41,820 nucleotides of DNA, from NCBI GenBank assembly GCA_001275005.1, contig JWZX01003044.1, forward strand, positions 1-41,820, written 5' to 3'. The position numbers and the translations under genes are program-made. This document shows, piece by piece, positions 1 to 35,001 of this stretch. The notes beneath the pieces are model-generated. The model made no database searches and was not told the DNA's origin. It saw nothing but the letters and a program-made list of their open reading frames with translations. This DNA is from Chrysochromulina tobinii. Lineage: Eukaryota. Position 1 is the first letter of the stretch, and every line of letters starts with the position of its first letter.

Positions 1-410
1 AATGATATAATCAAGATATAAGATGATATATAATGATATCTTGTATTGAAAATTCCCTTTTCTTGTATTGAAAATTCCCCCAATCCCGGCGCTCCAGGGT
101 CCGGTGAGTTACTTCAGCTACACACGGACACGCACGTTGCGGATTGCGCTTACCGCTTTGCGGTTATTTTATATTTATGGACGATAAACGTCGCGCGGCG
201 ACCACGTCGTACGTCGGTCATCGCATGTCCGTAGACGTCTTCAAAGATCTTCGCTTCGGGTGTTATTCGGGTGACGCTAAGGGTGACGCTTATTAGAGAT
301 CGCCGGTGCGTGACCCAACCGACCCGTAGGTTGTTATACTACTGGCGTTCTACTGGCGCACAATCCGCTACAGCCCGTACCCCGCCGTTAATAATATGCG
401 TTAACGAGCC

Positions 411-18719: not shown

Positions 18720-19272
18720 TCCGCCGCCCGCGTCCGGTGGCTCGTGCACGCGACGCTGCGCGTCGTGCGACGGGCGGCGGGGCGGGAGGCTCGGTCGACC
18801 CGACGACAGGAGTCGAGGGCGTTTTTTAGAGCGTTTTGTACATGTCTGATCATGCGATTAGATGAGATCCTCTGTTTGAATACGTAGTCAGGAAACTGTC
18901 TACTGTGGATCACAATGACGATCTACTTCAATGTCGAATGATGTCGTGTGGTCCATACATTTTTAGATCTCCCCCAGCATCCAGGGGAGGCGGTAATTTA
19001 CGTGACTCGTGTGTCGTGAGTCGGTGACGCGACCTCCGTGCTTGAGCTCCGTCGAATCCGCGAGATCCATGCGAGATCCGTGCCTCGTTGCCGTTCTCGT
19101 CCGGGTGTGTCGCCACTCGCTCTCTGAGACAGCCGCGCTGAAGACTGCTGTGCTGGTTGCTGATCACACAAACCCGGCGCTGCCACCCACCAAGCGCCGC
19201 TGCCCACAGCAGTGGCACCCTCGCGAGCGCCGTCGCGGGCACCATTGCGAGCGCCTTCTGCTTCGGGAGCTC

Positions 19273-19379
19273 CCTCAAGACGAGGGGGTCGGCAGAGACC
19301 TGAGCAGCCTCATGACGAGGGGGTCGGCAGAGACCTGAGCAGCCTCATGACGAGGGGGTCGGCAGAGACCTGAGCAGCC
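19273..19379. repeat. 35-bp tandem repeat x3 spanning the stop codon of the minus-strand LRR/SAPS-like gene
   Basis: Unit cctcatgacgagggggtcggcagagacctgagcag at 19273 (one substitution), 19308 and 19343. Confidence 0.95.
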
Positions 19380-21320
19380 GAATCAGCTCGCCCATCTCGC
19401 CGCTCATACCTCCCATCGCGCCCATGCGCGCCGGCGGCGCGCCGCACTTCCAGAGCGAGCTCGGGTGCTCGGGCAACAGCCGCTCGCGCATGGGTGCGAG
19501 CTGCTCGCTCACCTCGGCCCACCGGGGATCGGCTTGGAGCAGCGTCTTCGCCTGCTTGTCCGTGGCAGCGGCCTTGTCAATTGCGCACGCCATCTCGAGC
19601 CACAGGGGGCGCGAAGCAAGAGGCACGCCGCCCGGCGCGCCCTCATCCGAACAGAGCGCCGCACTCAGCAGCGCGGGCAGCGACGATGTAGTCTCGCTCG
19701 CGCCGCTCGCGCCGCCGCCGCCGCTCAGCAGGGCGATGCGCAGCGGCTTGGCGAGGAGGGCGGAGCGCACGAGACGGAGAACGGCGGCGCCGAACACGCC
19801 GCTCGCCGGGTGGCGGTAGAGCACATGGATGGCTGCGCTCAGCACGGGCGGGCTGGGCTCCGCGAGCGCCGTCGTGAGCACCGGCCGTTTCGCATTCACG
19901 AGCTTCTCGAGGATCTCGACGACGAGCAGCCGGCGCGCGCCGAGCCGGCGAGCCCATGCATCGGCCACGGGTCCCTCGCCGTAGCTCACTCGCGGGCGCG
20001 GAGGGGGCAGCAGCAGCGCATGGAGCACGCGCAAGTGCTGTGAACACCACTTGAGCCCACGCGGAAGCAACTTCGTGTTCGCCACCGGTGCATCGCTCTC
20101 AGCCTCCACGTGGCTTAGCACGACACGCAGTGCGTCGACCAACTCGGCGGCGTCACCGTCATGGCTGGGCACGCCCGTCGCGCCGAAGCTCGCGAGCAGC
20201 GCGATCGCCTTGTCAAAGTCCGGCGGTTGCATGCTCGCGAGGACGGGTGTGCCCACCTCGACGCGTCCATCCGCACCTGTGGATAAGGGAGCAAGGCGCC
20301 GTGGTGAGCACGTGCATGCTCAGCCTCTCCGTCCGGTGAGGGGGGCACTCAGACGCGTCCATCCGCACCTTGCGCAGGCGGGCCTTGCCAAGCTGGCGGC
20401 ACATCGCCCGCTGAGCGACATGCAAAGTAGGTGTCGACGGCTCGAGCGGTTCGAGCATTCTCCCCAGCGCCGCCCGTGCTGCCGGCGGGCGGCTGGGAGA
20501 GCTCGGGGAGGACGAGCGCCACCTCGGGCCGCTCCTCGAGCATCTTCGCGCACAGCTCGGCGCCAACGTCCCCGAGAGGATTACCCACCAGAGAGAGGAG
20601 GGTCAGTCGTGGCGCGAGGCGCCCTTCGGCGGTCAGTGCAGCGCACAGCTGCGCGGCACCCGCGTCCGACACGACGTTGTGAGCCAGGTCGAGCGTCTGG
20701 ATGGCGCACTGGGCGCCGCGTGTGCGCACGGCACTTGCGAGCATGCGCAGCTTCTTGTCCCCCAGCCCGCAACGTGCGAGTTGAGCCACGGGCGCCTCGC
20801 GCCCCTCCTTGAGCGCATCGAGGAGCGCCTGGAAACGAGCGTGGGCATCCTCCGTCGGACCGGAGGGCGCCGCCGCAGCGGTCGTACCGCCGCTGCCGCT
20901 GCCGCCGTCTGCGATCGAATCGGTACCGCCACCGGCGGCCTTCTTGCGAGCGGCTGCCGCCTTCGCCTTCTCCCGTTTCTTCTTTGAGGCGCTCATCCCC
21001 TCATCAGGATCCTCGTTGCCTTCACCCGTGTCAGCTGGCTCCGGTGCTGCAGCTGGCGCTGCCTGCAAGGGTTCCGATTCCGCCAGAGGCATTGGTTCTG
21101 GTTCTGGTGCTGGCGGCGCTGGCGGCGCTGGCGGCGCTGGCGGCGCTGGTGGCGCTGCTGGCTTGGCCTCATTTGCAGGTGATTCGTCGTGCAGATCATT
21201 TCCATCGGCTGCGCCCTCACCCGCCTTCTTCTTCTTCTTCTTCTTCTTCTTCTTCTTGGCAGCGGCATCGGCAGCATCTCCGACTTCGTCCTCCTCGTTC
21301 TCCACCTCTTCGTCCTCCAT
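19345..21320 (-). CDS. Acidic/poly-Lys/Pro-rich N-terminus + RNI-like LRRs + SAPS (SIT4/PP6 regulatory subunit)-like segment; exons 21320-20369 and 20276-19345
   Basis: LRRs: LARCGLGD, IQTLDLAHNVVSDAGA, LTLLSLVGNPLGDVGA. Intron 20368-20277 joins the ORFs in frame (AQGADGRVEVGTP). HLRVLHALLLPPP...LGARRLLVVEILEKLV...LYRHPASGVF resembles the SAPS domain. Alternative ATG at 21344. Confidence 0.7.
20277..20368 (-). other. Intron (92 nt) bounded by a perfect 19-bp direct repeat
   Basis: gacgcgtccatccgcacct at 20260-20278 and 20352-20370. Minus-strand GT...CCTTATCCACAG; retention gives a TGA. Confidence 0.85.
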
Positions 21321-21836
21321 GGCCGTCGACTTCCACGTGGACATTCACACTTCTTTCACAACGTTCAAGATCGGCTCCTCGCCCCCCAGCCACTCTCGTT
21401 CAACAACAAAGAGACACAAGAGACAGGATGGACACGCATTTGCTCTCGGACGCAGTTGTCAGAGCCACGTGCAAATTGCAAGCATCACCTCGCGACCGTT
21501 TATCTGAAACAGTTACACAGGCGTGCACTCGCGGCCGCTTTCAAAGGAGGGCTAGTAATTGCCCCAGAATGATAGGTATCCGCTAATAGACGGTATCAGT
21601 ATACTCATCGTCAGGACTCACCATGTGGGACTCACTAACTTAATCGCCGCGAGAACCCCGTAACTCGACGCTCTGCTCTCGCCTCTGCCATCTGCGAACT
21701 CCGCAATCCGGTCTCCGGGCTCAGAGAACGCGTACGCGGACATACCATTGCGGTTGCGGTGGCTGACCAAAGTAACCGAACCTCGAGGGCCTCAAAACAT
21801 CTATCTGCTCCTTCCATGGGCGCGACGTCGCCAAAT

Positions 21837-22412
21837 TTATGAGGCGCATTCGCGAGGCTCGCCATTCTTGAACCAGGGCGTCGCACGCTGCAGCCATGTT
21901 GGGGATGGGCATGAAGGTGGTGGTGCTGGTGGGGCCCAACCGAGCCACTGTACCATTGCTTCCTTGGCTGCTGCGACTGAGCCGTACCGCTGGCGGCTCC
22001 AGGTGAGCACAAACACAAGTAGCAGCTGTCCAATGAGGACTTTCGACGGCAATGCCACCCGTGTAGTCTCACGCGCAATGCGGGCGCGCTCGTAGCGTTC
22101 AGTAAATTGCGCCTCAAAATCCTTCGCGCGACGTTCAGCCTCGGCCTTCGCACTCTCGGATGGCTTCCCGAGCGGCCATACTTCGCGCATGTCCTCATCG
22201 CTGAGCGCAGTGATACCATTCTCAGCCGCAAACTCCTGCAGTTCTTCACGGGATGCGCCCCATATCTGAGCACTGTCTGTGAGCTTCGTCAGCAACAGCA
22301 TCGAAAGTTCTTGCGTTGTCAAGTCCTCCACCGTTGGGCGTTTGGATGATGTTGCTGCAGCCGAGTCATCACTTGTACACACCGCGGCTGCATCAGTCAG
22401 TTGGGCAGCCAT
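21837..22412 (-). CDS. Hypothetical protein with one predicted TM segment
   Basis: About 190-codon ORF from the ATG at 22412, with helical charged segments and a hydrophobic stretch VLIGQLLLVFVLTW. Confidence 0.55.
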   Translation of the reverse strand: MAAQLTDAAAVCTSDDSAAATSSKRPTVEDLTTQELSMLLLTKLTDSAQIWGASREELQEFAAENGITALSDEDMREVWPLGKPSESAKAEAERRAKDFEAQFTERYERARIARETTRVALPSKVLIGQLLLVFVLTWSRQRYGSVAAAKEAMVQWLGWAPPAPPPSCPSPTWLQRATPWFKNGEPRECAS

Positions 22413-22940
22413 CGAAGCCCCGATCACGGATCAACCACACGCACTGGCCACGGAACAAAAGTGTGTTGCGACTACAGTAGGAATCCTTGGACGCACGCAC
22501 GCACAGGCCGTCCTCGCGGAAAGACTCGTCTTCGAAGACTTTCTAAGTTTGGGACTAGCTTTAGCTACCGGTACTTCTGACGCTGCGCTTTTTAGTGCTC
22601 GGGCGCCGCGCGGCAAAAACGCCGAACCCTGCCACAATAGAGAATCCAAGGTTGGATAACAGTACTCACACTTGTACTACAGAGTACAGTCACTAGGTGT
22701 GTATGTCTCTGTGTCATGGATACAAGCGTCAGTCGAGACACATACGCCCACGCGTCATCAGGTCCGACGAGAGAGGTTGTCCACAGCGCCTCGCCGCGCG
22801 CCGGGTCTCGCCCTTTGCGTCATCAGCTGCATCCGAATCTCCCACACGCACGTGTCAGCGCTGACCGCCTCGGAGCTCAGTGGCCTTTGGTTGGAAGCAC
22901 GCGGCAGATCGGTGCGCGCATCAAGGGCCGGCGGCCAGAA

Positions 22941-25900
22941 TCACTGTGGCTCCTCCCGCCGCTCCTGCAGCCTGGCGAGTTGCACGACTAGCTGCTGCGC
23001 CTCCACTGGTGCCATCAGTACCTCATCCTCCGAGCCAGCCGACCCCACCGCGTCTGAAGCTGTCGAGGCGAGCGCACAGTAGCGTGCTGAGAGCGCGTGC
23101 AGGTTGAGCCGCGACAGGAAGGCGGCGTACTCGAGGACCACTCGCGCTGCACCACGAAACGCAAATCCGTTGGGCGTTCCACGGCGCGCCGGGTGAGGCT
23201 CCCGCAGTGCACACAGGAGGAGCGCCGCCTTGTCGAAAGCGCTTTGCTCGAGCAGCCGCTCAGCGACCTCCTGCACTCGCCCGAGGGAGAGAAGTACCTC
23301 GATGCCGCGCTGGTGCTCGCCTGAAGCGAGCAGGTGCTCAGCCCACTTTCCTAGGACCGTATCCCGCTCCGACGCAGGCAGCGATGCCTTTGCGAGGGTT
23401 GCGGCATGCTCCCAACGGCCAGCTCGCTGTAAACGCTCGCATGCCTCAGCTCCTCTGCCAATCAGGAAGAGCAACGGCACGGCCAGCGGCAGCTTGCCTG
23501 CGGCGCACAGTCGGTCGGCACTGGAGGTGATCGCGGCGACCTGATGAGGGAGGCAATTCGAGTTCATTAGAAGCCATTCGAGGCCATCAGAGGCAATCAG
23601 AGTGCCATCAGAGGTGATCGCAGCGACCTGCATCTGCGGCGACACAAAGCCGGCCACAAGGCACGCGAGGAGAAGGTCGCGCTCCGTCTCCATGCTCGCC
23701 TCTGAGGCGTCCGAGCCACCGCCCGCCGTGAGGAGCAGCGAGATGGCAGGCAGCTTGGCGTCGAGTGAGATCGCATGGAAAGCCCCGCGGCGACACCCGT
23801 CGGCGGGAGGTGCGCGCGACGGAGCCATGCGTTCCTCGAGACGGTCAAGCTCGGCCGTGCGCACCTCCGCCGGCTCGCGGAGTGCGCCGTATATGGGGGG
23901 TAGATGAGGCGGTTCGAAGCCGCGGTCGTCGGATGGCGCGGCGCCAGCGGCGACCCCTGCGCCTTGCCCACCCTCAGAGGGTTCCGACGCCGTGGAGAGG
24001 TCACCGCAACCGATCGGCAGCGCGGGCGTGTCCGGGAGGTGTTGCCCCGGGGATGGTCCCGGGGATGGCAGCGGCGGCGGCGCGCTGGCGCGCCAGAGCA
24101 ATGCCTCCGCGACCGACCAGAAGCGCGCGTCTTGCTCGCACCCGAGGAGCTCTGCGGCGAGCCGGCAGCGCGTCGGCAACGTCGGCGCACCCCGCAGCTG
24201 AGCGACTCTCTCGCTCGGAAGGTCCGGGAGTGGCACGTCTGCCTTCGGTTCGAGTGAACCCCAGATATCGAGGTGGACCAAGTACGTCTGGTGGAGCAGT
24301 CGTTCGCGCCGCGAGGCGAGAGGTAGGCACTGACTCGCCGCTATCAAGCTCGTGCTTTCAGTGAACGTGAGCACCGGAGTGTTGCCTCGCGAGAGGTCTG
24401 CACGGAGCAGCCGGATGCAGCCATCGTCACACGCGATGAGCGGCTGGCCGGCCGTCGTGAAGCCGATCGCGATGGCGCGCGAGGGTGGCTGGGGCATCGC
24501 GCCGCTGATGATGCCCCGAAGAGAAGAGGACGGCTGGGGCAGCGTCCACGGTGGCGCGTGTGGCAACGTCCAGAGAGCCTGGTCCCCATCGGCAAAGAGG
24601 ACGAGGAGGAGCCACGCCGCCTTGGTGGGGCTGGGCGCATGCAGCGCGATCGACTTGACCATGCCGCGGTGCGTTGCGAGTGAGTGCCGGCACGCTGGCT
24701 CGGTGGCATGCCAAACCGAGAGCATCCCCTCGAGCGTGCCGCTGATGACCCACGGGCCACCGAGGGCGAGGGCCGTCACCACGCCATCCGCCAACTCGAG
24801 CTGCTCCGTCGAGCGATCTCCCGAGCGAGACGAGAGCAACTTGATCCCTCGCACCTGTATGTGGAAGAGCGAGCCATCCGGCACTGCGAACACCAGCTCC
24901 TCCGAGTCAATCAGCTGCGGGTCGGAGGCGGCGGGGTCGTCTGTCTTTGGGGCGGGCACGCTGCTCGCCGCGCTCAAACGCGAGGCGTCCGGCAGCCCGG
25001 GGCGCCAATCGAGCGCCGCGCCGCTCGGGAAGGCCACAAAGTGCGTCGCGAGAGGCGTGCGGGAAGGCAAGTCCCAGATCTGCAGCGGAGCGTCCTTGAA
25101 AATCAACACGAGCCGACGACCAGAGGGGGAGAGGCGCGCCCCGATTAGGCTGACGGACGCGCCGCGCCCGAGTGGGCACGCCTCCTCGCACCGCCCTGAC
25201 GGCAGCCGCAGCCACTGCACCGAGTTCTTCCACTGATCGCGCCCCTCCTGCACCGAGCTATAAGAGAGGACAGAGCGCCGGCCCAGCCATTGAAGCCCCT
25301 TGGCCGCTGACGCATGCACGTCGAACGCGCCGACGACCTCGGGCTTGCAGGCTGTGCGTCTTGCCGCGCCGCTGCTCGTCTCATCGCCCGCCCGCCCGAG
25401 GTCGATGAGCAAAATATGGCCGCTCTCCACACCGACGGCAAGGCAGCGCGAGGCTGTGTCCGTCGCGGACGATGGCAATCGAGTGTCGGCAGCAGGCTGT
25501 ACTGCAAGCGAGGTGATGGGAGATCCGATGCTTGCAAGCAGGCCGCATTGCTCTAGCTGCCACCCCTCGCCCTTAGCGCGGCCACCGGGCGCCGTAGCGG
25601 GCGGCTGATCGTACGGGAGGCGCCACAGCCAGATGCGTCCATCCGCCGAGAGGCCTCCGAAGCGCTCGCCGTCCGGCAGGCTCGGCCGGAAGCCCAGCAG
25701 GGAGCAGCCGCCCCCCTTGAGCAGCGGCACCATGGCGCGGAAGCCAAAGACCACGCGCACGTCGGGCGGTGCGGCTGGCAGTCGACCGCCTGGTGGTGGA
25801 CCGCCCTCGCACGCGGCATCGACTCCGAGAGTCACCGCTCCTTCCTCCCTCCGTCCCTCCTCCCTCCGTCCCTCTGCCCCTGAAGGCCGACCCTGGGCAC

Positions 25901-26864
25901 ACCGTTCCCAGCGAGAGAGGCATCCATCGTGGTGGGTGCCAAGCACCGTGGACGGTAGCGCGAGCGACTGCGCCATCGAGGTGAAGTCGTGGTCCGTGCG
26001 GTCGAGCCACACGTTGCCTAGGACGGTGCCTGCACTCAAATCCCACAGGATCAGCTCGCGCGGGAGCAGCAGGTAAAGTTGCGAGCTCTCATGCAACGAG
26101 TACTCGAGCTGCAGCAGACGCCCCTTGTCGGCAGGCTGCTGCCGACCGCGAGCGCCGCTGCTGCTGCCGCTGCTGCCCGCGTCCTTCTCGACGCCCGCGG
26201 CGTGACCAGGCACGAGGTGCGCAACCGACTGCATGGTCAGCCTCTGGGGCGGCTGACGAACCTCGAGAGGCCCGAACTGCATGAGGATGCCCTTGCCGCA
26301 AAACGCCGCCACGCGGCCCCCATCATGAGCGTCGAAGGCAGCGTCGTAAATGCTTTCCGGAAGGTCGACACGCCAAATGAGCGAGGCCGGGCCGACAAGT
26401 TTTCCGTCTACCAGGTGGCCAACCATCTGGCCGACCTGGTAGGCGGCGATCACGTTCGGCGAGTGCACGCAGACCAACACGTCGTGCCGACGCGGCAGCC
26501 AGTGCATTCGCAGCGTAGCTCGAGCGGGGGAGCCGCCAACGTCCGAGAGCCAGCAAAGAGGCACGCCGCGCCGCACGTCCCATATGGCACACTGGCCAGA
26601 CGCGTCAGCGGAGGCGAGGAGCACCGTGTCGGCATATCGCTCGTTGTCAAGCATCGTACATCGGGCCGTTGGCCGGGGCGCCCATCGTACCTCGCACACG
26701 TGCGCTTTGTGGCCGTCGAGGGATTGCACAATTTCTGCCGTCTCAGGGTCAACAATATTGATGACATGCTGCACGCCCACTGCCAGTAGCCCGTTGCGCC
26801 AATCGAGTGCATTGCGATTACGCTCGTGCGCGAGACCGGTGATCGTGCATGGCGAGGGCGGCAT
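22941..26864 (-). CDS. WDR11: WD repeat-containing protein 11 homologue; probable intron 23627-23541
   Basis: The N-terminus TITGLAHERNRNALDWRNGLLAVGVQHVINIVDPETAEIVQSLDGHKAHVCEVRW and LASADASGQCAIWDV match the WDR11 start. Also LVLIFKDAPLQIWDL and a C-terminal helical region (AVPLLFLIGRGAEACERLQRAGRWEHAATLAK). Likely ATG at 26864. Confidence 0.85.
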   Translation of the reverse strand: MPPSPCTITGLAHERNRNALDWRNGLLAVGVQHVINIVDPETAEIVQSLDGHKAHVCEVRWAPRPTARCTMLDNERYADTVLLASADASGQCAIWDVRRGVPLCWLSDVGGSPARATLRMHWLPRRHDVLVCVHSPNVIAAYQVGQMVGHLVDGKLVGPASLIWRVDLPESIYDAAFDAHDGGRVAAFCGKGILMQFGPLEVRQPPQRLTMQSVAHLVPGHAAGVEKDAGSSGSSSGARGRQQPADKGRLLQLEYSLHESSQLYLLLPRELILWDLSAGTVLGNVWLDRTDHDFTSMAQSLALPSTVLGTHHDGCLSRWERCAQGRPSGAEGRREEGRREEGAVTLGVDAACEGGPPPGGRLPAAPPDVRVVFGFRAMVPLLKGGGCSLLGFRPSLPDGERFGGLSADGRIWLWRLPYDQPPATAPGGRAKGEGWQLEQCGLLASIGSPITSLAVQPAADTRLPSSATDTASRCLAVGVESGHILLIDLGRAGDETSSGAARRTACKPEVVGAFDVHASAAKGLQWLGRRSVLSYSSVQEGRDQWKNSVQWLRLPSGRCEEACPLGRGASVSLIGARLSPSGRRLVLIFKDAPLQIWDLPSRTPLATHFVAFPSGAALDWRPGLPDASRLSAASSVPAPKTDDPAASDPQLIDSEELVFAVPDGSLFHIQVRGIKLLSSRSGDRSTEQLELADGVVTALALGGPWVISGTLEGMLSVWHATEPACRHSLATHRGMVKSIALHAPSPTKAAWLLLVLFADGDQALWTLPHAPPWTLPQPSSSLRGIISGAMPQPPSRAIAIGFTTAGQPLIACDDGCIRLLRADLSRGNTPVLTFTESTSLIAASQCLPLASRRERLLHQTYLVHLDIWGSLEPKADVPLPDLPSERVAQLRGAPTLPTRCRLAAELLGCEQDARFWSVAEALLWRASAPPPLPSPGPSPGQHLPDTPALPIGCGDLSTASEPSEGGQGAGVAAGAAPSDDRGFEPPHLPPIYGALREPAEVRTAELDRLEERMAPSRAPPADGCRRGAFHAISLDAKLPAISLLLTAGGGSDASEASMETERDLLLACLVAGFVSPQMQVAAITSDGTLIASDGLEWLLMNSNCLPHQVAAITSSADRLCAAGKLPLAVPLLFLIGRGAEACERLQRAGRWEHAATLAKASLPASERDTVLGKWAEHLLASGEHQRGIEVLLSLGRVQEVAERLLEQSAFDKAALLLCALREPHPARRGTPNGFAFRGAARVVLEYAAFLSRLNLHALSARYCALASTASDAVGSAGSEDEVLMAPVEAQQLVVQLARLQERREEPQ
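23541..23627 (-). other. Probable intron (87 nt, frame-preserving) made of a duplicated exon start + 10-mer CTGATKGCCT tandem + CTCATCAG
   Basis: 20-bp direct repeat at 23524-23543 and 23611-23630 (19/20). The translated ORF shows QVAAITS twice around a non-homologous insert. Confidence 0.8.
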
Positions 26865-28071
26865 AGCGCCTTTCCGGGTGCGGCTGTCTTCGCACAAGAC
26901 TTCGTTCGAAGACTTCGTGTGTGGGGGAAGGGCCGCCCAGCCCCTTGGTGGGGGGCGCGTCTTCCCTCGCCTCATTCATTATTAGGAAAACACACCACGC
27001 ATAAAACAGCATTCACAGCAGGAGAGAGATGCTGCGAAGGACCCTCGAAATGAGACACATCATGCAGACGGAGTCGGAGAGCGGATCACGACTGACGACT
27101 GCACGTGCACCCTCACATGAACGAAGATGAAGCGAATTGCCATGCGAATTCCACACATGCACCGTGATATCGATTAGATATCGAAAGGATTAGAGTTGTC
27201 TGTTCGAAACGGTCAAACAACTGCGCTTTATCCGGATATGTCATGCTTGACCTTGTTCCGAGCATCCGAGGTGAGAGAGTCTGTCTTTCAGAGTACACTT
27301 CATACTAACATTTGACTCTTCACTCTAGTATACAACGAACTCCGGAACACGACACACTAGGACGAGGAGAGCGCACAGATACCCGTCTAGCGTCTTCTCA
27401 CAGCTCATCACGCGGCGCGCAGCGGCGGCGGCGGCGGCGGAGGCGGCGGCACCTTCCTCGCGGGCCAGCGGTACGTGCGGTCCCGAAAGTAGTCGCTCGA
27501 GCGTCTGCAAGGGCGTATTGTCTCGCATCGTCGCGCCAGTTGGCGGCGAGTTTGGGGAGCCGACGATTGACGATCGCGACATGCCGAAGTGAATGGATGT
27601 TTGTCCTAGTTGGCACTCGCAGCATGCTCCTCCAGCAGCGCTAGCGCCTTGAGCAATCGCCAGGTCGGCGCGTCTTGAAGCGCTTGTCGAATTTCACTCA
27701 GCAGCGCGGTCCTGTTGTGCCCATCCTGTGTCGCATGATGGGATGCCGATGCACTTGTACTGCTGCTGCCGCGTCCACCTTGCTGTACCCGCCTCAAAAT
27801 AGCAAGCTCCTCGAGGTTGAGCTTTGTGCCGTTCGCGTACGACATCCACAGTGTGGCCGTTTGAGATTCGTAAGTTTCCGCAAGCCAAAGTTTGATCGAA
27901 TTTAACGTCTGATTACTAGCAAGATCATGTACACTTAGCCTCCTTCGCCCCTGTTTCGTCGAAAGTTGAACATGTACTTCCTCGACGCTTATGTTGTCAC
28001 GTGCGGACGGCTCCGAAGGATGCTCGACGTTTGTGAGAATCGACGAGACGCGCGGCGGCGGCTCCGCGGGC

Positions 28072-29449
28072 ATGCACGACGACACTAGCATGCACGACGA
28101 CACCAACGACCTCCTCAGCTACTGGGCTGAGGCAAAGCGCGCCAAGGACTTTGTCAAGTCCGACGCGCTGCGCGAACAGCTGCGTGCTCGCGGTGTCGAG
28201 CCTGAGCGCAGCGCGGCGGCCCCGAAGACAAGGTTGAAACTCGACGATCGATCCACAGTTGACGGGCCAGTGTTGGAATACATCACCGCTGCCGGCTACC
28301 AATCTGCACTGCCGCTCACGTATGTCAAAGCCTCCGATGTGCTGGCAGCGGCGAGAGCAGCGACCGGCATCACGGATGCCTGCGACAGCTTCATCCTCGC
28401 CTCACTGCTACGCCTGCTCGAGCAGGCCACTTCTTGCAAGGTGGTGCGGACCAAGGCATCGCATGCCAACCCGTGGACGGGCATCGCGGATGTGTATTGG
28501 GGCGTGACATGCTCGTCGCTCCCAGCCGCGCCGCTTGCGACGCCAGAGTGCTACGAGTGCAAGGACAACAAAGAGGAGAAGAAGGCTCAGCGAGCCGCGT
28601 GGCTGCGCGCGCGTGGCAAGCCGGAGCCAGACCCTCTGCGCAGCCGCATCGTCGGTAAGAATGCCGACGCGCACTATTCAATGTATACCAACGAGCTTCT
28701 CAGCTTGACGTGCGCGCCCAAGCTGCTTGAGCTCAAGCTGTTTCCATCTGCGAAGGAGCTCACGGAGAGTTTTTCATGCTTCGCCGCGGTGCGCGCTCAC
28801 CTGAGCAACGAGTTCCGGCCCGACGACCCGAGCGTGCTGCTCGTGTGCGTGGGCGATGGACTCACGCCGCGTACCGCGGGCCTCTTTTGCTTTCGGACCA
28901 AGTGGAAGTGCATCTCGGTCGACCCTCTGATGCGCGGGCCGCTCGGATTCCACAGTGACGAAACCCGCTGGTCGGAGCACATTGAGCGGCTCACAGCGCG
29001 TCGCGTACGGCTACAGGACGCGGCGCCAGTGCCGGCTGGCAAGTTTGTGGGCGAGCGCGTGCTGCTCGTGCTCCCGCATGCACACATAGGCCTAGACGAG
29101 TGCCTCCAGTGCGTGCGAGGGTCCGCCCAGCTCGGCGCGGTGCTGATAGCCATCTGATTGCCTCCCTGATGGCTACCTGATGGCCTCGCTCATCAGGTAC
29201 GTGCGATGGTCCGCCCAGCTCGGCGCGGTGGTGATGCCGTGCTGCAACTGGTACCTGGGCGCGAAAGGGTGCGGGCCACCGCTGCATGAGGACGATGATC
29301 TCGGCGTGATCTCGCCCCACCGGCAGGTCAGCATCTGGAGGTGGGCCCCGGGCGATGCACTGCCCCCTGCCGTCCCGCCACCCGATGCGGCGCCTCCGCC
29401 ACCCGATGTGGCGCCTCCGCCACCTCTGGACGAGACGCGGTTCACATGA
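28072..29449 (+). CDS. Putative methyltransferase-like protein with an N-terminal CysRS anticodon-binding-like helical motif; exons 28072-29108 and 29197-29449
   Basis: WAEAKRAKDFVKSDALREQLRARGVE resembles the CysRS C-terminal motif. The core LFPSAKELTESF...LVCVGDGLTPRTAGLF...WKCISVDP...LPHAH...VVMPCC has a Rossmann MTase-like layout. Removing intron 29109-29196 gives CLQYVRWSAQLGAVVMPCCNWY. Confidence 0.7.
29109..29196 (+). other. Intron (88 nt) made of a 39-nt copy of the downstream exon start + CTGATKGCC repeats + CTCATCAG
   Basis: 29109-29147 matches 29197-29235 at 36/39. Retention gives a TGA at 29155-29157; removal restores the frame. Confidence 0.85.
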
Positions 29450-29926: not shown

Positions 29927-31633
29927 TCAAGCGAGCAGCAGCGGCACGCCCGCATGCTTATCGCCTCGCCAGCCGCCATCGACCGTCGAGACGATCCGAC
30001 GTGGCCGAAGGGTTTGCACACAGTCGCGCAGCTCGTCAAAGGACGAGTGCTCCGAGTAGGCGACCTCGCAGATGGTGACGTCTTGGCTCAGCCGGACGGT
30101 GCGGCCCGCGGCGCCCGCGGAGGCGCCGCCGCGGCCGAAGCACCAGCCCGTCGGCCGGAAGGCGACGCAGCCTGTGAAGCGGCCGCCGCTCGCCCTGAGT
30201 AATGCCTTGAGTCGATCAGCCTTGAGGTGGCACATGGGCACAACTCTCCAGCGAGTCGAGGCGACATCGCTCGTGAGGACCGCCGCATACTCCGGCGCGA
30301 GCGCGCAGCACTCGAGCAGACGCTCCTTGGCACGTTCGACGCCGATGCGCACGCCGCACTGCTTGCCCACCTCGAGGAAGACACGCTCCTTGCCGATGGA
30401 GTAACTGCCAAAGAGAATCAGCGTGCGCGGCGCATCGAGCAGCAGCTTGCACCGGTCGACCACAGCTTGCACCACCGCCGCCTGCGTAGGGAACCTGTGC
30501 TTCGGGTCGCAGTAGGTCGTGTCCAGGTACAACATGTCGATCGGGCGGCGCAACGCACGCAGCGCTGGGTTGGCGAGCATGCTCGGAGTGTACCGAAAGT
30601 CACCAGTATGTAGCACGATACGCCCGCCGGACAGCTCGAAGAGAAGAAGCACCGCTCCCGGGCAATGGTTGGCGTCGATCGGCGTCACGCGCGCGCCGCA
30701 CACTTCAGACGGCACGTCCATTGGCAGCACGATCATCTGCGAGGGCGCCACCCCCAGCCGACGAACAACGAGGGCCGCGGTCACAGCTGAGGCGTAGATG
30801 GGCGCGCCCCACCGTTTGGTGATGCCCTTATAGTGATCGGCGTGGAAGTGGGTGAGGAAGTGCACGTCCGATGACTGCGCGCCCCACGCGAACCCGTCCA
30901 CAACGAAGGGCGTGCCCTCGATGCGCTTGAACGGAGGCACGATGCGGGCTCGGCCCCCGCCCCCGCCCCCGCCTTGCCAGCCAGCGCCACGCCCACGGCT
31001 CCCGCGGCCACGGCTACAGCCGGCCTCGGCACTGGCAGACGCCGCAACGGAGGCCTTGTTCGCGGAACCCGCAGCAGCCGCAGCCTGCATCAGGACCTGC
31101 AACGCGTCACGAGGAGGAGGTGGCGGTGGCGGAGGTGGAGGCTCGGTCCGACGGGCCCACATCGTGCGGGCGGACTGCATGAGCACTCGGAAACAGTCCT
31201 CATCAGAAGCAGCCACCATATGGCTCGCTGGGCCTGGAGTGGCAACTGCTCGTGATGGGAGCGTGTCTGCTTGCGTCTTTGGCACGACTGCGAGTGGCGT
31301 CTCTGGCATGACGGCGAGTGGGATGGGAGCGGCAACTAAGTGAGCCGGTGGGGCTGAAGCCGAGCTTAATCGCTTTCCGCAAACCATGATGTGCCTGATG
31401 CGGCACACCTTGGTGTCCAGGCCGCTGAGATCTTCAAGGCAATGGGTACACATGAATTTTATGCGGTGCGCGTGCTCACTTGTGTCGTGTCGTGGCTCTG
31501 ACGTGTTGAGCGCCAACAACTTTGCTCGTTTAGGCGCGGGGCACCCTTCAGGAGTGGCTTGATGCTTTCTCGAGGGGTTTATTTGCGTTTGCAGATCGTC
31601 AGCGTCAGCAGCATCAGTAAGCCAACCGAGCAT
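29927..31633 (-). CDS. SNM1: DNA cross-link repair beta-CASP nuclease SNM1/PSO2 (DCLRE1A-like) with an N-terminal UBZ-like zinc finger
   Basis: FVVDGF, HFLTHFHADHYKG, DANHCPGA, LHTGDFRY, LYLDTTY, GSYSIGKERV, FRPTGW and YSEHSSFDEL; zinc finger CTHC...RHIMVC. Confidence 0.93.
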   Translation of the reverse strand: MLGWLTDAADADDLQTQINPSRKHQATPEGCPAPKRAKLLALNTSEPRHDTSEHAHRIKFMCTHCLEDLSGLDTKVCRIRHIMVCGKRLSSASAPPAHLVAAPIPLAVMPETPLAVVPKTQADTLPSRAVATPGPASHMVAASDEDCFRVLMQSARTMWARRTEPPPPPPPPPPRDALQVLMQAAAAAGSANKASVAASASAEAGCSRGRGSRGRGAGWQGGGGGGGRARIVPPFKRIEGTPFVVDGFAWGAQSSDVHFLTHFHADHYKGITKRWGAPIYASAVTAALVVRRLGVAPSQMIVLPMDVPSEVCGARVTPIDANHCPGAVLLLFELSGGRIVLHTGDFRYTPSMLANPALRALRRPIDMLYLDTTYCDPKHRFPTQAAVVQAVVDRCKLLLDAPRTLILFGSYSIGKERVFLEVGKQCGVRIGVERAKERLLECCALAPEYAAVLTSDVASTRWRVVPMCHLKADRLKALLRASGGRFTGCVAFRPTGWCFGRGGASAGAAGRTVRLSQDVTICEVAYSEHSSFDELRDCVQTLRPRRIVSTVDGGWRGDKHAGVPLLLA

Positions 31634-32028
31634 GGCAAAGTTCAATTTCTCAGAGAAGGTGCTTTGAGTATGAAGGATAATCCATCGAGTGTGAAGCTTT
31701 AAGCGGCCCGGCCCGGCGGCTTATCGAGTATGGCTGTGATAATAGGGGGTCCAGGGGTCCCCGAGCTAATGGTAACCGCATCCATATGTACGCCGGTCCG
31801 GTGTCTTGGGTGTCGAATTATAATTTATAAACATTGGCTGTGAAGTGTCTTAAGTGTCGACAGTCGAAGTTGAGAGGAAACACACATTGCGCTCGAGCGG
31901 CGTGCAGGCGCAATTGCATCCCTCATCAAGGGACGCCACCCAGGCCGCCCCCCGCTCTGTGGGGAAACGTACTGTACCGGTAAAAAGACACCGGTGGGGC
32001 GGGAGTCGGCCAAAGGGCGACGGCCTAG

Positions 32029-35001
32029 GCGCTGCACGCGGTTCAGGGCGCAGTCGGCTGCCGTGTTTGCGTTCACAATCTGCGGTCACGCCCAGAACTT
32101 AATCGCTTGGCAGGCACAGTCACCTCAGTTGACGAGGCTAAAGGCCGCCTTGGTGTGCGTCTCGATGGCCAGGGCGCCCCCATCTCTGTGTCATGTCAGC
32201 ACCTCAAGAGAGAGGACAGCCCACCGTGGGACAAGTGCCGCCATGGTGGGCCACTGCCCGACCCTGCGATGATGCAAGAGTTCTTTGCACTGTTTACAGC
32301 TGCCAACCAACTCACGGCGCCCTGCCTGGAACACGTTCAACTTCTCGAGCCACATATACGGCGCTACTCTCCACCGCCCATCCTCTTCGCATCGACGGGC
32401 ATCGATGCGTACATCGAAATGGACTACTCAAACTGCCGGGGCTTTGCTGTGTGCGCGATCGTGCTCCAAGGCGTACGCGAAGAAGGCCACCGGCGCTTCT
32501 TTGCCAGCGTCGCCGCGCGATTGGGAGGCGGGGTGAGCTCTCCAGTATTGGCGACAGTAGAAGCTCAGCTGGCCAGGTGCAAAACAGCCACGGGCCTCCT
32601 CGAGGTGCTCGATTCATTTGCGAAGTGCCCCAAGGCAGTAGCAGGAGGCAGGGAATGGAGCTGCTTGCAGATCGCCGCGCACAGAGGTGTCGGGCTGAGT
32701 CAGAGCCACATCGACCCGGCACCCAGTCCCGTGGATGCCATCTATGATCGAGGTGCACATCCGCCGCCGCAGAGGACAGCTTGTTCGGCCGCGGCGCTCG
32801 CCGGAGAGAACCTCGCCCGTCTAGCGTTGCAATCTCTCGAATCTGGTCACTCGAGCAGTACGAGCACGCGCGAGAAGGCCCTGACCATCCGTGCTGCTGC
32901 CGGCGCATTGCTGGGGTTGCGTTCGGATGCGACGCACAGCGGAGAGAGGCGCGCTGAAGTGCGCGAGCTCATGCTCAGGTATTACGAGGCTGCAGAAGTG
33001 GCGGGCGGCTTCTTCATTGACGGCGGAGGCATGCCGCGGCTCGAGGCGTCGGTTACGCGATGCCTGACTGTGGGCGGCCGGCAGCTGCGCGCAGACACGC
33101 CGCTTGGTGACGAGGCGCTCCTCGCGTTTGAGATCATCAAAGAGGTGCAGAGCACGGCGGTCGCGTCTGCACTGCTGCGTGGGGGCATCGCCGCGCGCCT
33201 ATGCCACTTCATGTCCACCGAACACGATTTGGTGCTCGACCATAATGCCCTGAGCGCCTTGTGCAGTATTCTCGGGGCGGCGGAGACGACGGAGTTCGTC
33301 TCGGCACTTGGGCATGCGGCGTTGGCGCCCGTGGTGAGGCTCGCGGCCATTCTCATGCATGACTTGCTCACGGAGGACGTGCTCGACTTTAGCATGCTCG
33401 ACGTGTTGCTCCGGGTTGCGACCCTCATTGCCGGAGGCTCCGCCGAGCTTGCGCACTTGGTCGCCTCTACGAGCGTGCGTGGCATTCCATACTGCATCCC
33501 CACCTCGCTCCTTCTCATCCTCGTCCAGCACGCGCATGAGCAGCGGGCAGGCCGCACCGACGGCCCAAAGGCGGGAGCTTGCTTGAATGGGCTGGCCCAT
33601 CTCCCACCGATCTCGATGGCCCTGACCGGGCTGTACACCATCTCCCTCCACTTTGACCTTCGTGTGGTCGCGCTGTCGAACAGTGGTTCGTTTGTGGACG
33701 CTCTGGGCGAGTACGCGAGCTTTCTGCATGGGTTCGTGCATCACCAAGCAGTCGATCCGATCGCGCAGGAGTGCCTCGCGCGGCTTCGTCAATTCACGGC
33801 TTCGAGCGCCCCCCCTATGAATCCGTGTCCACTGCCGGTGGAGACGGAGGTGGAGCAGACGCGCCGGCTGAGGCAGTACGCTCGATCGCTGCACGAGGTG
33901 CGTGGGCGTGTGCGCGAGCAGCGACATGAGCAGCGCACGCGCGGTGTTGGCCCCGCCGTCGAGCGCGCGGACGACGCTCGTCAGCGCGGTAACCGTCTCA
34001 TTGAATCGAGCCGTTGGCACGAGGCGGCGGATGCGTACAGCGAGGCGGTGGCGGCACTCACAGGTCTGTTCGAAGGTCTGGAAATGGATGCCCACGCGGC
34101 GTGGTCGCTCGTGCTTGCGCTCTCGAACCGCGCCGAGGCGTTTCTTAAAATGGGGCGGCACGAAGCGGTCTTAGACGACTGCACGAACGCTTGGGTGCTA
34201 CTGGAGCGGCACGAAGGAGGCTTCGATGCAGCGAAGGCCGAGGCGATCGGCGTGAAGCTCGCACGGCGCGAGGCCGCAGCGGAGGCACAGCAGCGTGGTG
34301 CAGCACGTGCAGATGCGGCTCGACAGGCGGCGGCCGAACGCGGCCAGGCACGCACCGAGAGACGGCGCCGAGCTCGAGAGGCCCGAGTGCTGCGGCGGGC
34401 GCTCGAGACGGCGCCGATCTCGAGAGGTTCGAGCGCTGCGGCGGGCGCGCGGGACGGCGCCGAGGCAGAATCAGCGAGTGCGGAGGCTACTTCAGAGGCA
34501 CGCGCGGTTGGTGTGGGGACAACGTCAGAGGTGGAGGGGGCAGCAGACGAGCCCTACACGGTGTTGAGGGCCCTGCAGGCTGCTAAGACATCGTCGGAAC
34601 TGCGCACGGCACTCATTGCAGCCATGACGGCCGAGCGCGAGGCGCCCCTCGCCTCCGAGGCGTCCGAGATCGCCGAAGCCCTGCCGCGCGCCCGCCAACG
34701 GCTCAAGGAGCTCAAGCTTAAGGAGGATGCGGAGGCCAAGGCTGCTGCTGCTGAGGCTGCAGTGGTGGCGGCAGCTCCGGCGATGTCCGTGGCGGAACTT
34801 TCGGAGCCTGAATGCCGCATCTGCCTCGAGGGACGCGACGAAGGGGCTCTCGAGGACGTCTGCGGCCATGGGCACCTGTTGCACTTGGGCTGTGCTGCGG
34901 TGTGGCGAGAGAGGTGTCTCAAGCAGCAGCGAGAAGCGATGGAGCGTGGAGTCGCCGATCATCTGGGCCCGCACTGCCCAACATGTAGGCGAAGCATCTG
35001 A
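32029..35001 (+). CDS. Large protein with an SH3-like N-terminal module, a helical region, TPR repeats and a C-terminal RING finger; 5' end unresolved
   Basis: Open frame from 32029. VGCRVCVHNLRSRPELNRLAGTVTSVDEAKGRLGVRLD; TPR (RQRGNRLIESSRWHEAADAYSEA, ALSNRAEAFLKMGRHEAVLDDC); RING CRIC...CGHGHLLHLGC...W...CPTCR. Confidence 0.75.
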   Translation, partial: ALHAVQGAVGCRVCVHNLRSRPELNRLAGTVTSVDEAKGRLGVRLDGQGAPISVSCQHLKREDSPPWDKCRHGGPLPDPAMMQEFFALFTAANQLTAPCLEHVQLLEPHIRRYSPPPILFASTGIDAYIEMDYSNCRGFAVCAIVLQGVREEGHRRFFASVAARLGGGVSSPVLATVEAQLARCKTATGLLEVLDSFAKCPKAVAGGREWSCLQIAAHRGVGLSQSHIDPAPSPVDAIYDRGAHPPPQRTACSAAALAGENLARLALQSLESGHSSSTSTREKALTIRAAAGALLGLRSDATHSGERRAEVRELMLRYYEAAEVAGGFFIDGGGMPRLEASVTRCLTVGGRQLRADTPLGDEALLAFEIIKEVQSTAVASALLRGGIAARLCHFMSTEHDLVLDHNALSALCSILGAAETTEFVSALGHAALAPVVRLAAILMHDLLTEDVLDFSMLDVLLRVATLIAGGSAELAHLVASTSVRGIPYCIPTSLLLILVQHAHEQRAGRTDGPKAGACLNGLAHLPPISMALTGLYTISLHFDLRVVALSNSGSFVDALGEYASFLHGFVHHQAVDPIAQECLARLRQFTASSAPPMNPCPLPVETEVEQTRRLRQYARSLHEVRGRVREQRHEQRTRGVGPAVERADDARQRGNRLIESSRWHEAADAYSEAVAALTGLFEGLEMDAHAAWSLVLALSNRAEAFLKMGRHEAVLDDCTNAWVLLERHEGGFDAAKAEAIGVKLARREAAAEAQQRGAARADAARQAAAERGQARTERRRRAREARVLRRALETAPISRGSSAAAGARDGAEAESASAEATSEARAVGVGTTSEVEGAADEPYTVLRALQAAKTSSELRTALIAAMTAEREAPLASEASEIAEALPRARQRLKELKLKEDAEAKAAAAEAAVVAAAPAMSVAELSEPECRICLEGRDEGALEDVCGHGHLLHLGCAAVWRERCLKQQREAMERGVADHLGPHCPTCRRSI

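Follow-up and report, generated by a model that had tools for sequence, protein, structure and literature searches.

Exon-copy introns in Chrysochromulina tobinii and related algae: a probable transposase-free route of continuing intron gain

Here we show that introns carrying a copy of the adjacent exon are real and general in the sequences that we sampled, and that they probably represent a transposase-free route of continuing intron gain in the freshwater alga Chrysochromulina tobinii. We hold with moderate confidence that such introns are composed of a target-exon duplicate of 12-60 nt and a fragment of other introns, brought together by break repair with a double template switch at microhomologies. 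The anatomy of these introns, their generality in the sample, the microhomology at the joins, the local kinship of the tails and the absence from relatives (in protein calls and two DNA pairs) are established in this work. Three of them lie in the window, the 41,820-nt stretch of contig JWZX01003044.1 that was analysed (Table 1).

Table 1. Introns 1-3, their component parts and their host genes in the window
Feature	Positions	Strand	Description
Host gene 1	19345..21344	-	weak LRR_6 match
Intron 1	20277..20368	-	92 nt, sole predicted intron of LRR-containing hypothetical gene
Duplicate 1 (of downstream exon start, GT supplier)	20352..20368	-	17/17 identical
Tail 1, family B	20277..20351	-	module 20295-20319 + pyrimidine tract + CAG
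Exonic original of duplicate 1	20260..20276	-	
Host gene 2, WDR11	22941..26975	-	
Intron 2	23541..23627	-	87 nt, in frame, no stop; TPR region of WDR11 gene (Pfam)
Duplicate 2	23611..23627	-	16/17 identical
Tail 2, family A	23541..23610	-	degenerate 10-nt repeats, final letters CTCATCAG
Exonic original of duplicate 2	23524..23540	-	
Host gene 3, hypothetical	27991..29449	+	456 aa spliced
Intron 3	29109..29196	+	88 nt, in 456-aa hypothetical gene
Duplicate 3	29109..29147	+	36/39 identical
Tail 3, family A	29148..29196	+	
Exonic original of duplicate 3	29197..29235	+	

The initial annotation described three introns that begin with a copy of the exon that follows; their coordinates, lengths, GT..AG ends and duplicate lengths were all reproduced, as was the lack of an exon copy in the five other predicted introns of the window (scores 0-1). 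When GT..AG pairs 60-130 nt apart were scored in any register over the whole window, 5 of 18,137 reached at least 13, namely introns 1-3, intron 2 read in antisense, and a 41-nt tandem repeat at 19.3 kb that is unrelated to them. The near-constant length that had been proposed holds for the three introns (92, 87 and 88 nt) but not for the family, whose median is 82 nt with a 10th-90th percentile range of 68-145 nt (78 cases). Likewise, the tail of intron 1 had been assigned to the 10-nt repeat but belongs mainly to a second, non-tandem family, and no source was traced for its first ~24 nt. The 49-75 nt tails of the window introns are common to other introns, in contrast to pure tandem duplication, which involves no foreign sequence.

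Contigs of DNA run X1, which is perhaps the source of the window, cross each intron gap-free, and translated introns 2 and 3 are present in unspliced protein calls from other strains; therefore the introns are not assembly artefacts. RNA supports the predicted junctions unequally. RNA from culture (runs X11 and X13) and the polyA run X15 skip intron 2 (87 nt, CT..AC on the + strand). Intron 1 is ambiguous: X15 alone skips it (92 nt), and this run comes from another strain, in which an empty allele would look alike; a contig of run X12 ends at the matching point of intron 1 with 271 further letters not displayed. No joint of intron 3 was found among the displayed matches of six RNA runs; we call it spliced because the unspliced form meets an in-frame stop and homologues follow the spliced frame. 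A loose end at 29197 in run X14 was considered as the joint of intron 3 and rejected as the joined form of a diverged relative.

At all three window positions relatives, some of them on long contigs, continue without an intron in protein calls. The position of intron 1 is read through in 10 of 11 spanning relatives (93% amino acid identity), and intron 2 is absent from all 14 spanning sister-lineage proteins. Therefore introns 1-3 are gains, at positions that are not conserved, as expected from the earlier reading of recent insertion, with outgroup absence indirect for introns 2 and 3 and weak for intron 1. Empty and filled sites were also paired at the DNA level in L027 versus L070 (119 nt) and L036 versus L041 (75 nt, with only a 4-nt duplicate). 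Related introns thus occur at many new positions and are present or absent among relatives, as is seen for introners in the broad sense.

The wider sample comprised 122 related metagenome loci (~640 kb unique) from 34 of 64 parts of one scan, chosen for the family A tail. An exon copy was found at 98 of 220 repeat-type and 43 of 92 module-type tail ends, against 2.7% and 2.3%, respectively, in permuted controls; exon-intron similarity is therefore far above background and the intron family recurs in many genes, both of which the initial annotation had left to be checked. Moreover, a direct repeat of the adjacent exon stands at the opposite intron end above background, as in break repair of the Daphnia type. 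Family A tails are runs of a degenerate 10-nt unit, whereas family B is a unique, non-repeated module of ~45-75 nt that is 5' truncated at varying points, its nested truncations sharing a fixed 3' end on which the search was anchored. Many tails stop exactly at a fixed CAG, where the search was anchored, and an RNA end would be a simpler explanation for this. The number of units in an array varies between near-identical strains, as slippage after insertion would give.

The median duplicate length in 78 filtered cases was 23.5 nt (range 12-60, the lower bound being the filter setting), which agrees with the long, variable target duplications first proposed. Duplicate and tail lengths are anticorrelated (rho -0.70), and the flank ends in G in 56 of the 78 cases. 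Among 319 repeat pairs the duplicate gives the 5' site in 77, the 3' site in 29 and both in 43, with splice sites unassignable in 170; the derivation of the 5' GT from the duplicate is thus borne out in the window introns and in those 77 pairs. The 29 mirror forms, predicted from sequence, copy the upstream exon and so supply the 3' AG; they keep the 5' end of the donor and lose its 3' end. By eye there are no terminal inverted repeats, and five sequences gave no stable fold beyond shuffles (z -0.26 to -1.02), in keeping with the earlier description of the elements as TIR-less. A likeness of the 10-nt repeat to the hammerhead core was not supported; there was no Rfam match in three loci. Prokaryote genomes yielded no matches. 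No evidence of a viral vector emerged: scans of viral sequences turned up a match ascribed to chance in AT-rich DNA, and one contig of 68% GC whose tailed introns resemble those of the host.

Microhomology at the join could be tested in 36 of 78 cases, where it averaged 4.0 nt, against 0.8 nt, and reached at least 3 nt in 21 of 36, against 9%; a donor-like match right at the join was missing in the other 42. The best match of a tail was a same-strand neighbour within 1.5 kb in 21.7 of 63 (1.5 expected) and 27 of 157 (2.1 expected), opposite-strand neighbours being scarce (6 pairs at 0.5-1.5 kb). Pairs above the 99th percentile of unlinked similarity drop with distance (11/26, 8/75, 9/129, 3/116 and 1/91), and in six aligned donor-copy pairs, 0.1-2 kb apart, donor and copy show 1-4 differences over 42-75 nt. 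In L042 and L064 array variants are common to neighbouring introns over whole arrays. Copies in L042 bear an exon-derived tag of their birthplace, and in L064 the copied stretch spans the exon-intron boundary of the donor, so that the template there was unspliced. These joins and local pairs fit the repair-like origin raised as a possibility in the initial annotation. Introns 1-3 have no donor inside the window (best local scores 14, against 26-36 elsewhere), and distant or lost donors must therefore be assumed for them; for the polymorphic L027 insert the donor search gave only common repeat units. A distant donor was not traced: there were 43 tag matches at other loci in new contexts, and those inspected were short chance matches or orthologous copies. 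Similarity between neighbours may partly reflect gene conversion between introns already present.

We propose that an exonic 3' end at a staggered break or stalled fork would anneal through a few bases to an intron already present, in many cases on the same strand within 2 kb, or else to one of many related copies elsewhere. About 35-100 nt of the donor would be copied before re-pairing with the target 12-60 nt before the leaving point, often at AG/G, and in this way the duplicate would arise. In coding sequence the survivors would be products whose duplicate and fragment jointly combine GT, branch point and AG within a length that can be spliced, and such selection by splicing would account for the GT start as well as for the trade-off in length of duplicate and tail. 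Later slippage and unequal exchange may expand repeats and stack intron copies. Since each new intron can donate to the next, the families would propagate with no need of a transposase. Insertion templated by nearby DNA is a trait of polymerase theta; a polymerase-theta-like activity is our guess for the enzyme, and the template may be DNA or nascent pre-mRNA.

Target-primed reverse transcription of intron RNA, either SINE-like or by partial reverse splicing of an excised intron, would leave copies with a constant 3' end, truncated 5' ends and duplicates of variable length. The type I ends and the nested truncations of family B have this form in a search anchored at the 3' end, there is microhomology at the 5' join, and same-gene intron pairs in Oikopleura have been attributed to reverse splicing (as reported in PMC3879977). 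We consider this explanation unlikely, however, as the mirror forms show the contrary pattern, the L064 copy contains donor exon bases that an excised intron could not supply, inspection by eye showed no poly(A) tail and three loci had no Rfam match; the same-strand arrangement of 166 of 171 adjacent arrays would suit it but is also expected from selection inside genes. It is also improbable, in our judgement, that a non-autonomous transposon of the introner or Replitron kind inserts full-length introns, which acquire duplicates later through switches of template, either between alleles with and without the intron or with cDNA. Full-length introns of family B that possess their own GT do exist (e.g., L044:3280-3351), the G-ended flank would fit, and the length trade-off is compatible with in-register replacement; in the available parts of the sources, marine Chrysochromulina metagenome-assembled genomes (MAGs) have introners with 4-bp target site duplications (TSDs; PMC9860276), and Replitron-1 has variable-length TSDs at RG sites, with one Replitron locus in C. 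tobinii (PMC10288648). Yet traced copies are out of register (in L042, a duplicate of 26 nt and a donor offset of about 8), copies sit directly behind unrelated introns (L044, L037), terminal repeats and stable hairpins were not seen (z -0.3 to -1.0), and no same-position pair with and without duplicate occurs among 16 aligned locus pairs.

The initial annotation itself favoured a staggered cut and fill-in followed by repeated addition of a short template, as a telomerase-like enzyme would perform it. The 10-nt unit runs of family A, into which the duplicate often merges by microhomology, are what such an enzyme would leave, but the non-tandem family B module, the locus-specific unit variants shared by neighbours over whole arrays, the strain-variable array length, the mirror forms and, in sampled cases, insertions that reproduce a specific donor array base for base speak against iterative addition as the insertion step, and we give this model very little weight. 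Equally remote seems the view that no position is new and that old introns had their 5' part overwritten by spliced cDNA or mRNA in abortive intron loss. It would yield both orientations and the length trade-off; however, relatives on long contigs read through the positions, tagged copies stand at new sites, and duplicates crossed an exon-exon junction at 0 of 312 sites, a comparison of low power.

Large intron gains are mainly credited to transposons. The source of most new introns is unknown according to the available text of a Daphnia study (PMC4202315), and the introns described here bear on this long-standing gap, in that the target, the donor and both joins can be read from each young intron. 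We found no account of exon-copy intron structure in Chrysochromulina in the literature searched, mostly outside subscription journals, bioRxiv supplements and introner sequence files. An approximate density of 43 per Mb, based on 6 in 140 kb at a distance from the search anchors and 3 in the 42-kb window, would put the number of such introns in a 59-Mb genome, scored introner-free by survey, at a few thousand. We put forward, tentatively and at somewhat less than even chances, that intron gain of this kind is genome-scale, still active and transposase-free, with repeat-rich tails acting as preferred repair templates that are copied mostly locally behind long target duplications, and that it has produced thousands of introns in several Chrysochromulina-like lineages that are invisible to similarity-based introner searches. 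Because the alga can be cultured and wild populations are polymorphic for these sites, the mechanism lends itself to direct tests.

Comparison with known systems follows the available parts of the sources cited. Replitron-1 of Chlamydomonas (PMC10288648) shares variable-length TSDs, orientation-specific insertion at RG and ragged right ends, but is 0.9-3.6 kb long and has a hairpin and direct terminal repeats; we saw no such features here, where the ends are ragged and no termini are conserved on both sides. Introners, including those of marine Chrysochromulina MAGs (PMC9860276, PMC12130899), likewise place related introns at many unrelated sites in sense orientation and co-opt a splice site from the target duplication; C. 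tobinii is listed with 0 introner families in 12 of the 14 supplement files of one large survey (PMC12130899). However, introners are similar end to end with TSDs of 3-9 bp and/or TIRs, whereas here, with the MAG introners compared by description, the 5' or 3' part is a locus-specific exon copy of 12-60 nt (4 nt in one polymorphic case), tails vary with ragged ends, TIRs and stable folds were not seen and donors often lie close by; a minority of copies, full-length introns of family B, may qualify. In Oikopleura dioica reverse splicing was invoked for four near-identical within-gene intron pairs out of ~75,000 introns (as reported in PMC3879977); there too an intron was copied to a new site in the same gene, but in our sample partial copies accompanied by long duplicates are frequent, and at least one template had not been spliced. 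Tandem genomic duplication of AGGT (PMC3443670) also lets the duplicate supply splice sites and restores the coding sequence, yet has no foreign insert, while here the branch region and, in most cases, one of the splice sites come from an intron-derived fragment. Tandem duplications at breaks with overhangs (PMC8355091) are overhang-sized (43-50 nt substrates) with microhomology in polymerase-theta products, although they come from an experimental mammalian system and not from intron gain. Intron gain in Daphnia pulex by staggered double-strand-break repair (PMC4202315; review PMC3443670) shares the direct repeat of the adjacent exon flanking new introns, later internal repeats and population polymorphism; its repeats are 4-12 bp and most of its insert sources unknown, whereas the duplicates here are 12-60 nt (with a filter-set lower bound) and supply a splice site, and the inserts trace to other introns in shared families.

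The initial annotation had proposed three introns that each begin with a copy of the next exon, and their placement was confirmed, the duplicates being identical to that exon at 17/17, 16/17 and 36/39 positions in introns 1, 2 and 3. Among the 18,137 GT..AG pairs lying 60-130 nt apart in the window, their score was matched by just two others, one being intron 2 read in antisense and one an unrelated tandem repeat of 41 nt. Assembly artefact had been named as a possible source of such duplications; each intron is spanned gap-free by DNA contigs of sequencing run X1, which may itself be the source of the window. Support independent of X1 comes for introns 2 and 3 from other strains, whose protein calls are unspliced: translated intron 2 is carried by 14 of the 15 proteins listed, the 15th being the annotated spliced model, and translated intron 3 by 10 of those listed at 92-98% identity, with a duplicate variant in 3 further ones. 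RNA of culture runs X11 and X13 and of the polyA run X15 skips intron 2, as the annotation predicted. RNA of X15, a run from another strain in which an empty allele would look identical, also skips intron 1. The joint of intron 3 was not found in the RNA runs; its unspliced frame has a stop, the spliced frame is continued by homologues, and gene 3, when spliced, encodes a protein identical to one that the database names Chrysochromulina tobinii.

As judged from the sequences of relatives, the three window introns are gains. Absence was read from relatives' protein calls, in sources whose genes were called without splicing, since these calls read through into intron translations. Among the listed cluster members, all 14/14 spanning proteins of a 94%-identical lineage, whose contigs reach 27 kb, lack intron 2, and so do 6/6 at 53-71% identity. 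At the position of intron 1, 10 of the 11 spanning proteins listed at 93% identity read straight through, a set whose longest contig is 11.4 kb and whose short contigs may be transcripts; the P0108 protein ends at the very stop that closes the window frame when it is left unspliced, and no outgroup beyond the 93% relatives turned up for this intron. Intron 3 looks older because it is present, with a duplicate variant, in a 95% lineage, and its three mismatches agree with this; the contigs in that lineage (27,225, 16,051 and 7,609) match in size those without intron 2. More distant relatives read through its position on contigs of 10-268 kb, and, to judge from translations, one distant lineage (74-kb contig) probably has a tail-type intron elsewhere in its gene 3 homologue. 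When 16 locus pairs were aligned as DNA, 2 differed cleanly by presence or absence: metagenome locus L027 has a doubled insert of 119 nt, its duplicate 10 nt long, that L070 lacks, and L036 has an intron of 75 nt, its duplicate 4 nt long, that L041 lacks. Each of the two may be a gain or a loss. Other introns are kept in both empty contigs.

The remainder of each intron, its tail, belongs to one of two families in a sample of 122 loci assembled from cultures and lakes, obtained by one tail-pattern scan of metagenome contigs, biased to tail A and holding ~640 kb of unique sequence, window included. Family A (introns 2 and 3) is a degenerate 10-nt repeat ending CTCATCAG, while in family B (intron 1) a non-tandem module leads into pyrimidines and CAG, and full-length forms with their own GT occur. 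The exon copy extends beyond the window: at a score of at least 10, the downstream exon is copied at 98/220 A ends vs 2.7% of 4,400 permuted pairs, and at 43/92 B ends vs 2.3% of 1,840. Filtering for clean duplicates (score at least 12, at most 60 nt, beginning with GT or GC and unlike a tail) left 90, of which 12 immediately follow another intron and 78 follow other sequence. In these 78 the duplicate has a median of 23.5 nt and is mismatch-free in 32, and total intron length has a median of 82 (10th-90th percentile, 68-145). Tail length falls as duplicate length rises in the filtered cases (rho -0.70), from which we infer that short templated tracts are commoner and are filtered by a minimum intron length. 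Away from the search anchors there are 6 clean cases in 140 kb. Intron density is very uneven, with ~8 in the 42-kb window and many tailed introns per kb in some genes of L005, L009 and L044, which is what local seeding would give.

Donors frequently lie close to their copies. A tail is most similar to a same-strand intron at most 1.5 kb away in 21.7 of 63 cases for family B (expected 1.5) and in 27 of 157 for family A (expected 2.1), and strong tail similarity drops with distance (11/26, 8/75, 9/129, 3/116, 1/91); the overall shift in tail similarity is weak for family A (p 0.07). Six aligned donor-copy pairs show 1-4 differences over 42-75 nt. At L042, an intron bearing the tag of its own exon duplicate has one copy 352 nt upstream and another 1,007 nt downstream; the downstream copy has gained a 26-nt duplicate of its own and shows microhomology at each join. 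At L064 the copied stretch spans the exon-intron boundary of a donor 2 kb off, which makes DNA or unspliced pre-mRNA the template. Tags suggest the direction of copying in L042, L037 and L064, and it is presumed in L044 and L055. A search within the window found no donor for its three introns, and therefore distant donors must also act.

Family B tails line up as stepwise 5' truncations of a single sequence. Where the duplicate-tail join has a donor-like match (36 of 78 cases), microhomology there averages 4.0 nt vs 0.8 and is at least 3 nt in 21/36 vs 9%. At the other join, AG stands ahead of the duplicate in 29/78 vs a background of 8%, an excess that splice-site selection could equally cause. 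Automated sorting of 319 repeat pairs enclosing tail motifs, stacked copies included, had the duplicate give the predicted 5' splice site in 77, the 3' site in 29 and both in 43, leaving 170 unassigned; by these predictions the insertion geometry is symmetrical.

Each of four rivals explains some of these observations and fails on others: intron RNA may have been retro-inserted, a transposon may have been followed by switching between alleles, sequence may have been added in a telomerase-like manner, or old introns may have been overwritten. The anatomy of the inserts, as far as it can be read from sequence, fits two template switches in repair: the repair strand would depart from the exon at +n, take a stretch of an intron as template and come back n bases earlier, and slippage after insertion would produce strain-to-strain differences in array length and in stacked introns. 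Insertion templated by nearby DNA is a trait of the polymerase theta pathway. The available part of an experimental study in mammalian cells describes overhang-sized duplications and microhomology when polymerase theta acts (PMC8355091).

Head-to-tail introns with no exon between them occur at L009, L011, L013, L015, L031, L064, L065, L087 and L108, where their copy number varies among strains; they are candidates for recursive splicing.

Positions of the window introns and of further features in the window and in metagenome loci
Feature	Sequence	Position	Strand	Observation
Intron 1	window	20277..20368	-	host gene 1, hypothetical with weak LRR
Intron 2	window	23541..23627	-	host gene 2, WDR11
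Intron 3	window	29109..29196	+	host gene 3, hypothetical, 456 aa
41-nt unit x3 in tandem	window	19270-19390		at stop codon of host gene 1; units meet at AG/GT on minus strand, frame stops in first unit either way; contigs break here; possible pure tandem-duplication intron
Contig breaks	window	28845-28938		seen in DNA as well as RNA contigs, around variant positions 28848 and 28908; suggests heterozygosity in gene 3
SNM1/Artemis-family DNA repair nuclease gene (Pfam DRMBL)	window	29927-31633	-	adjoins host gene 3, probably by coincidence
Intergenic repeat	window	31621-32221		high copy in DNA run X1; summed depth ~5,700 vs ~80
Rare tail variant	L005	7464, 11799, ~19650	both	common to both strands over 4-12 kb; a hint of regional copying at DNA level
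Full-length family B form	L044	3280-3351		own GT
Complete GT..AG intron between duplicates	L048	~6565-6712		duplicates ~33 nt, a multiple of three; could add codons or allow splicing to distal AG
Complete GT..AG intron between duplicates	L088	~229-357		duplicates ~27 nt; as for L048
Host-like tailed introns	L124	2900-3060		68% GC; contig filed as viral, probably algal DNA

In the accessible articles and supplements, no account of an intron structure combining an exon copy with a shared tail was found. The available text of the genome paper holds a single mention of introns, an average count (PMC4580454), and a 2025 introner survey, in the part available, gives 0 families for C. tobinii (PMC12130899, supplement file 7). 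There is a substantial chance that these introns represent a distinct genome-scale route of intron gain. To judge from the accessible portion of the Daphnia study, the process works as break-repair intron gain does there, with repeats of 4-12 bp and sources mostly unknown (PMC4202315). It is also akin to what is found in Oikopleura, for which four same-gene intron pairs are reported in the excerpt at hand (as reported in PMC3879977), and stwintron families have no TSD according to the available sections of their description (PMC12403724). The C. tobinii introns resemble introners in their manner of spread but differ from them in failing the tests of end-to-end similarity, short TSD and TIR, as set out in the accessible part of an introner study (PMC9860276).
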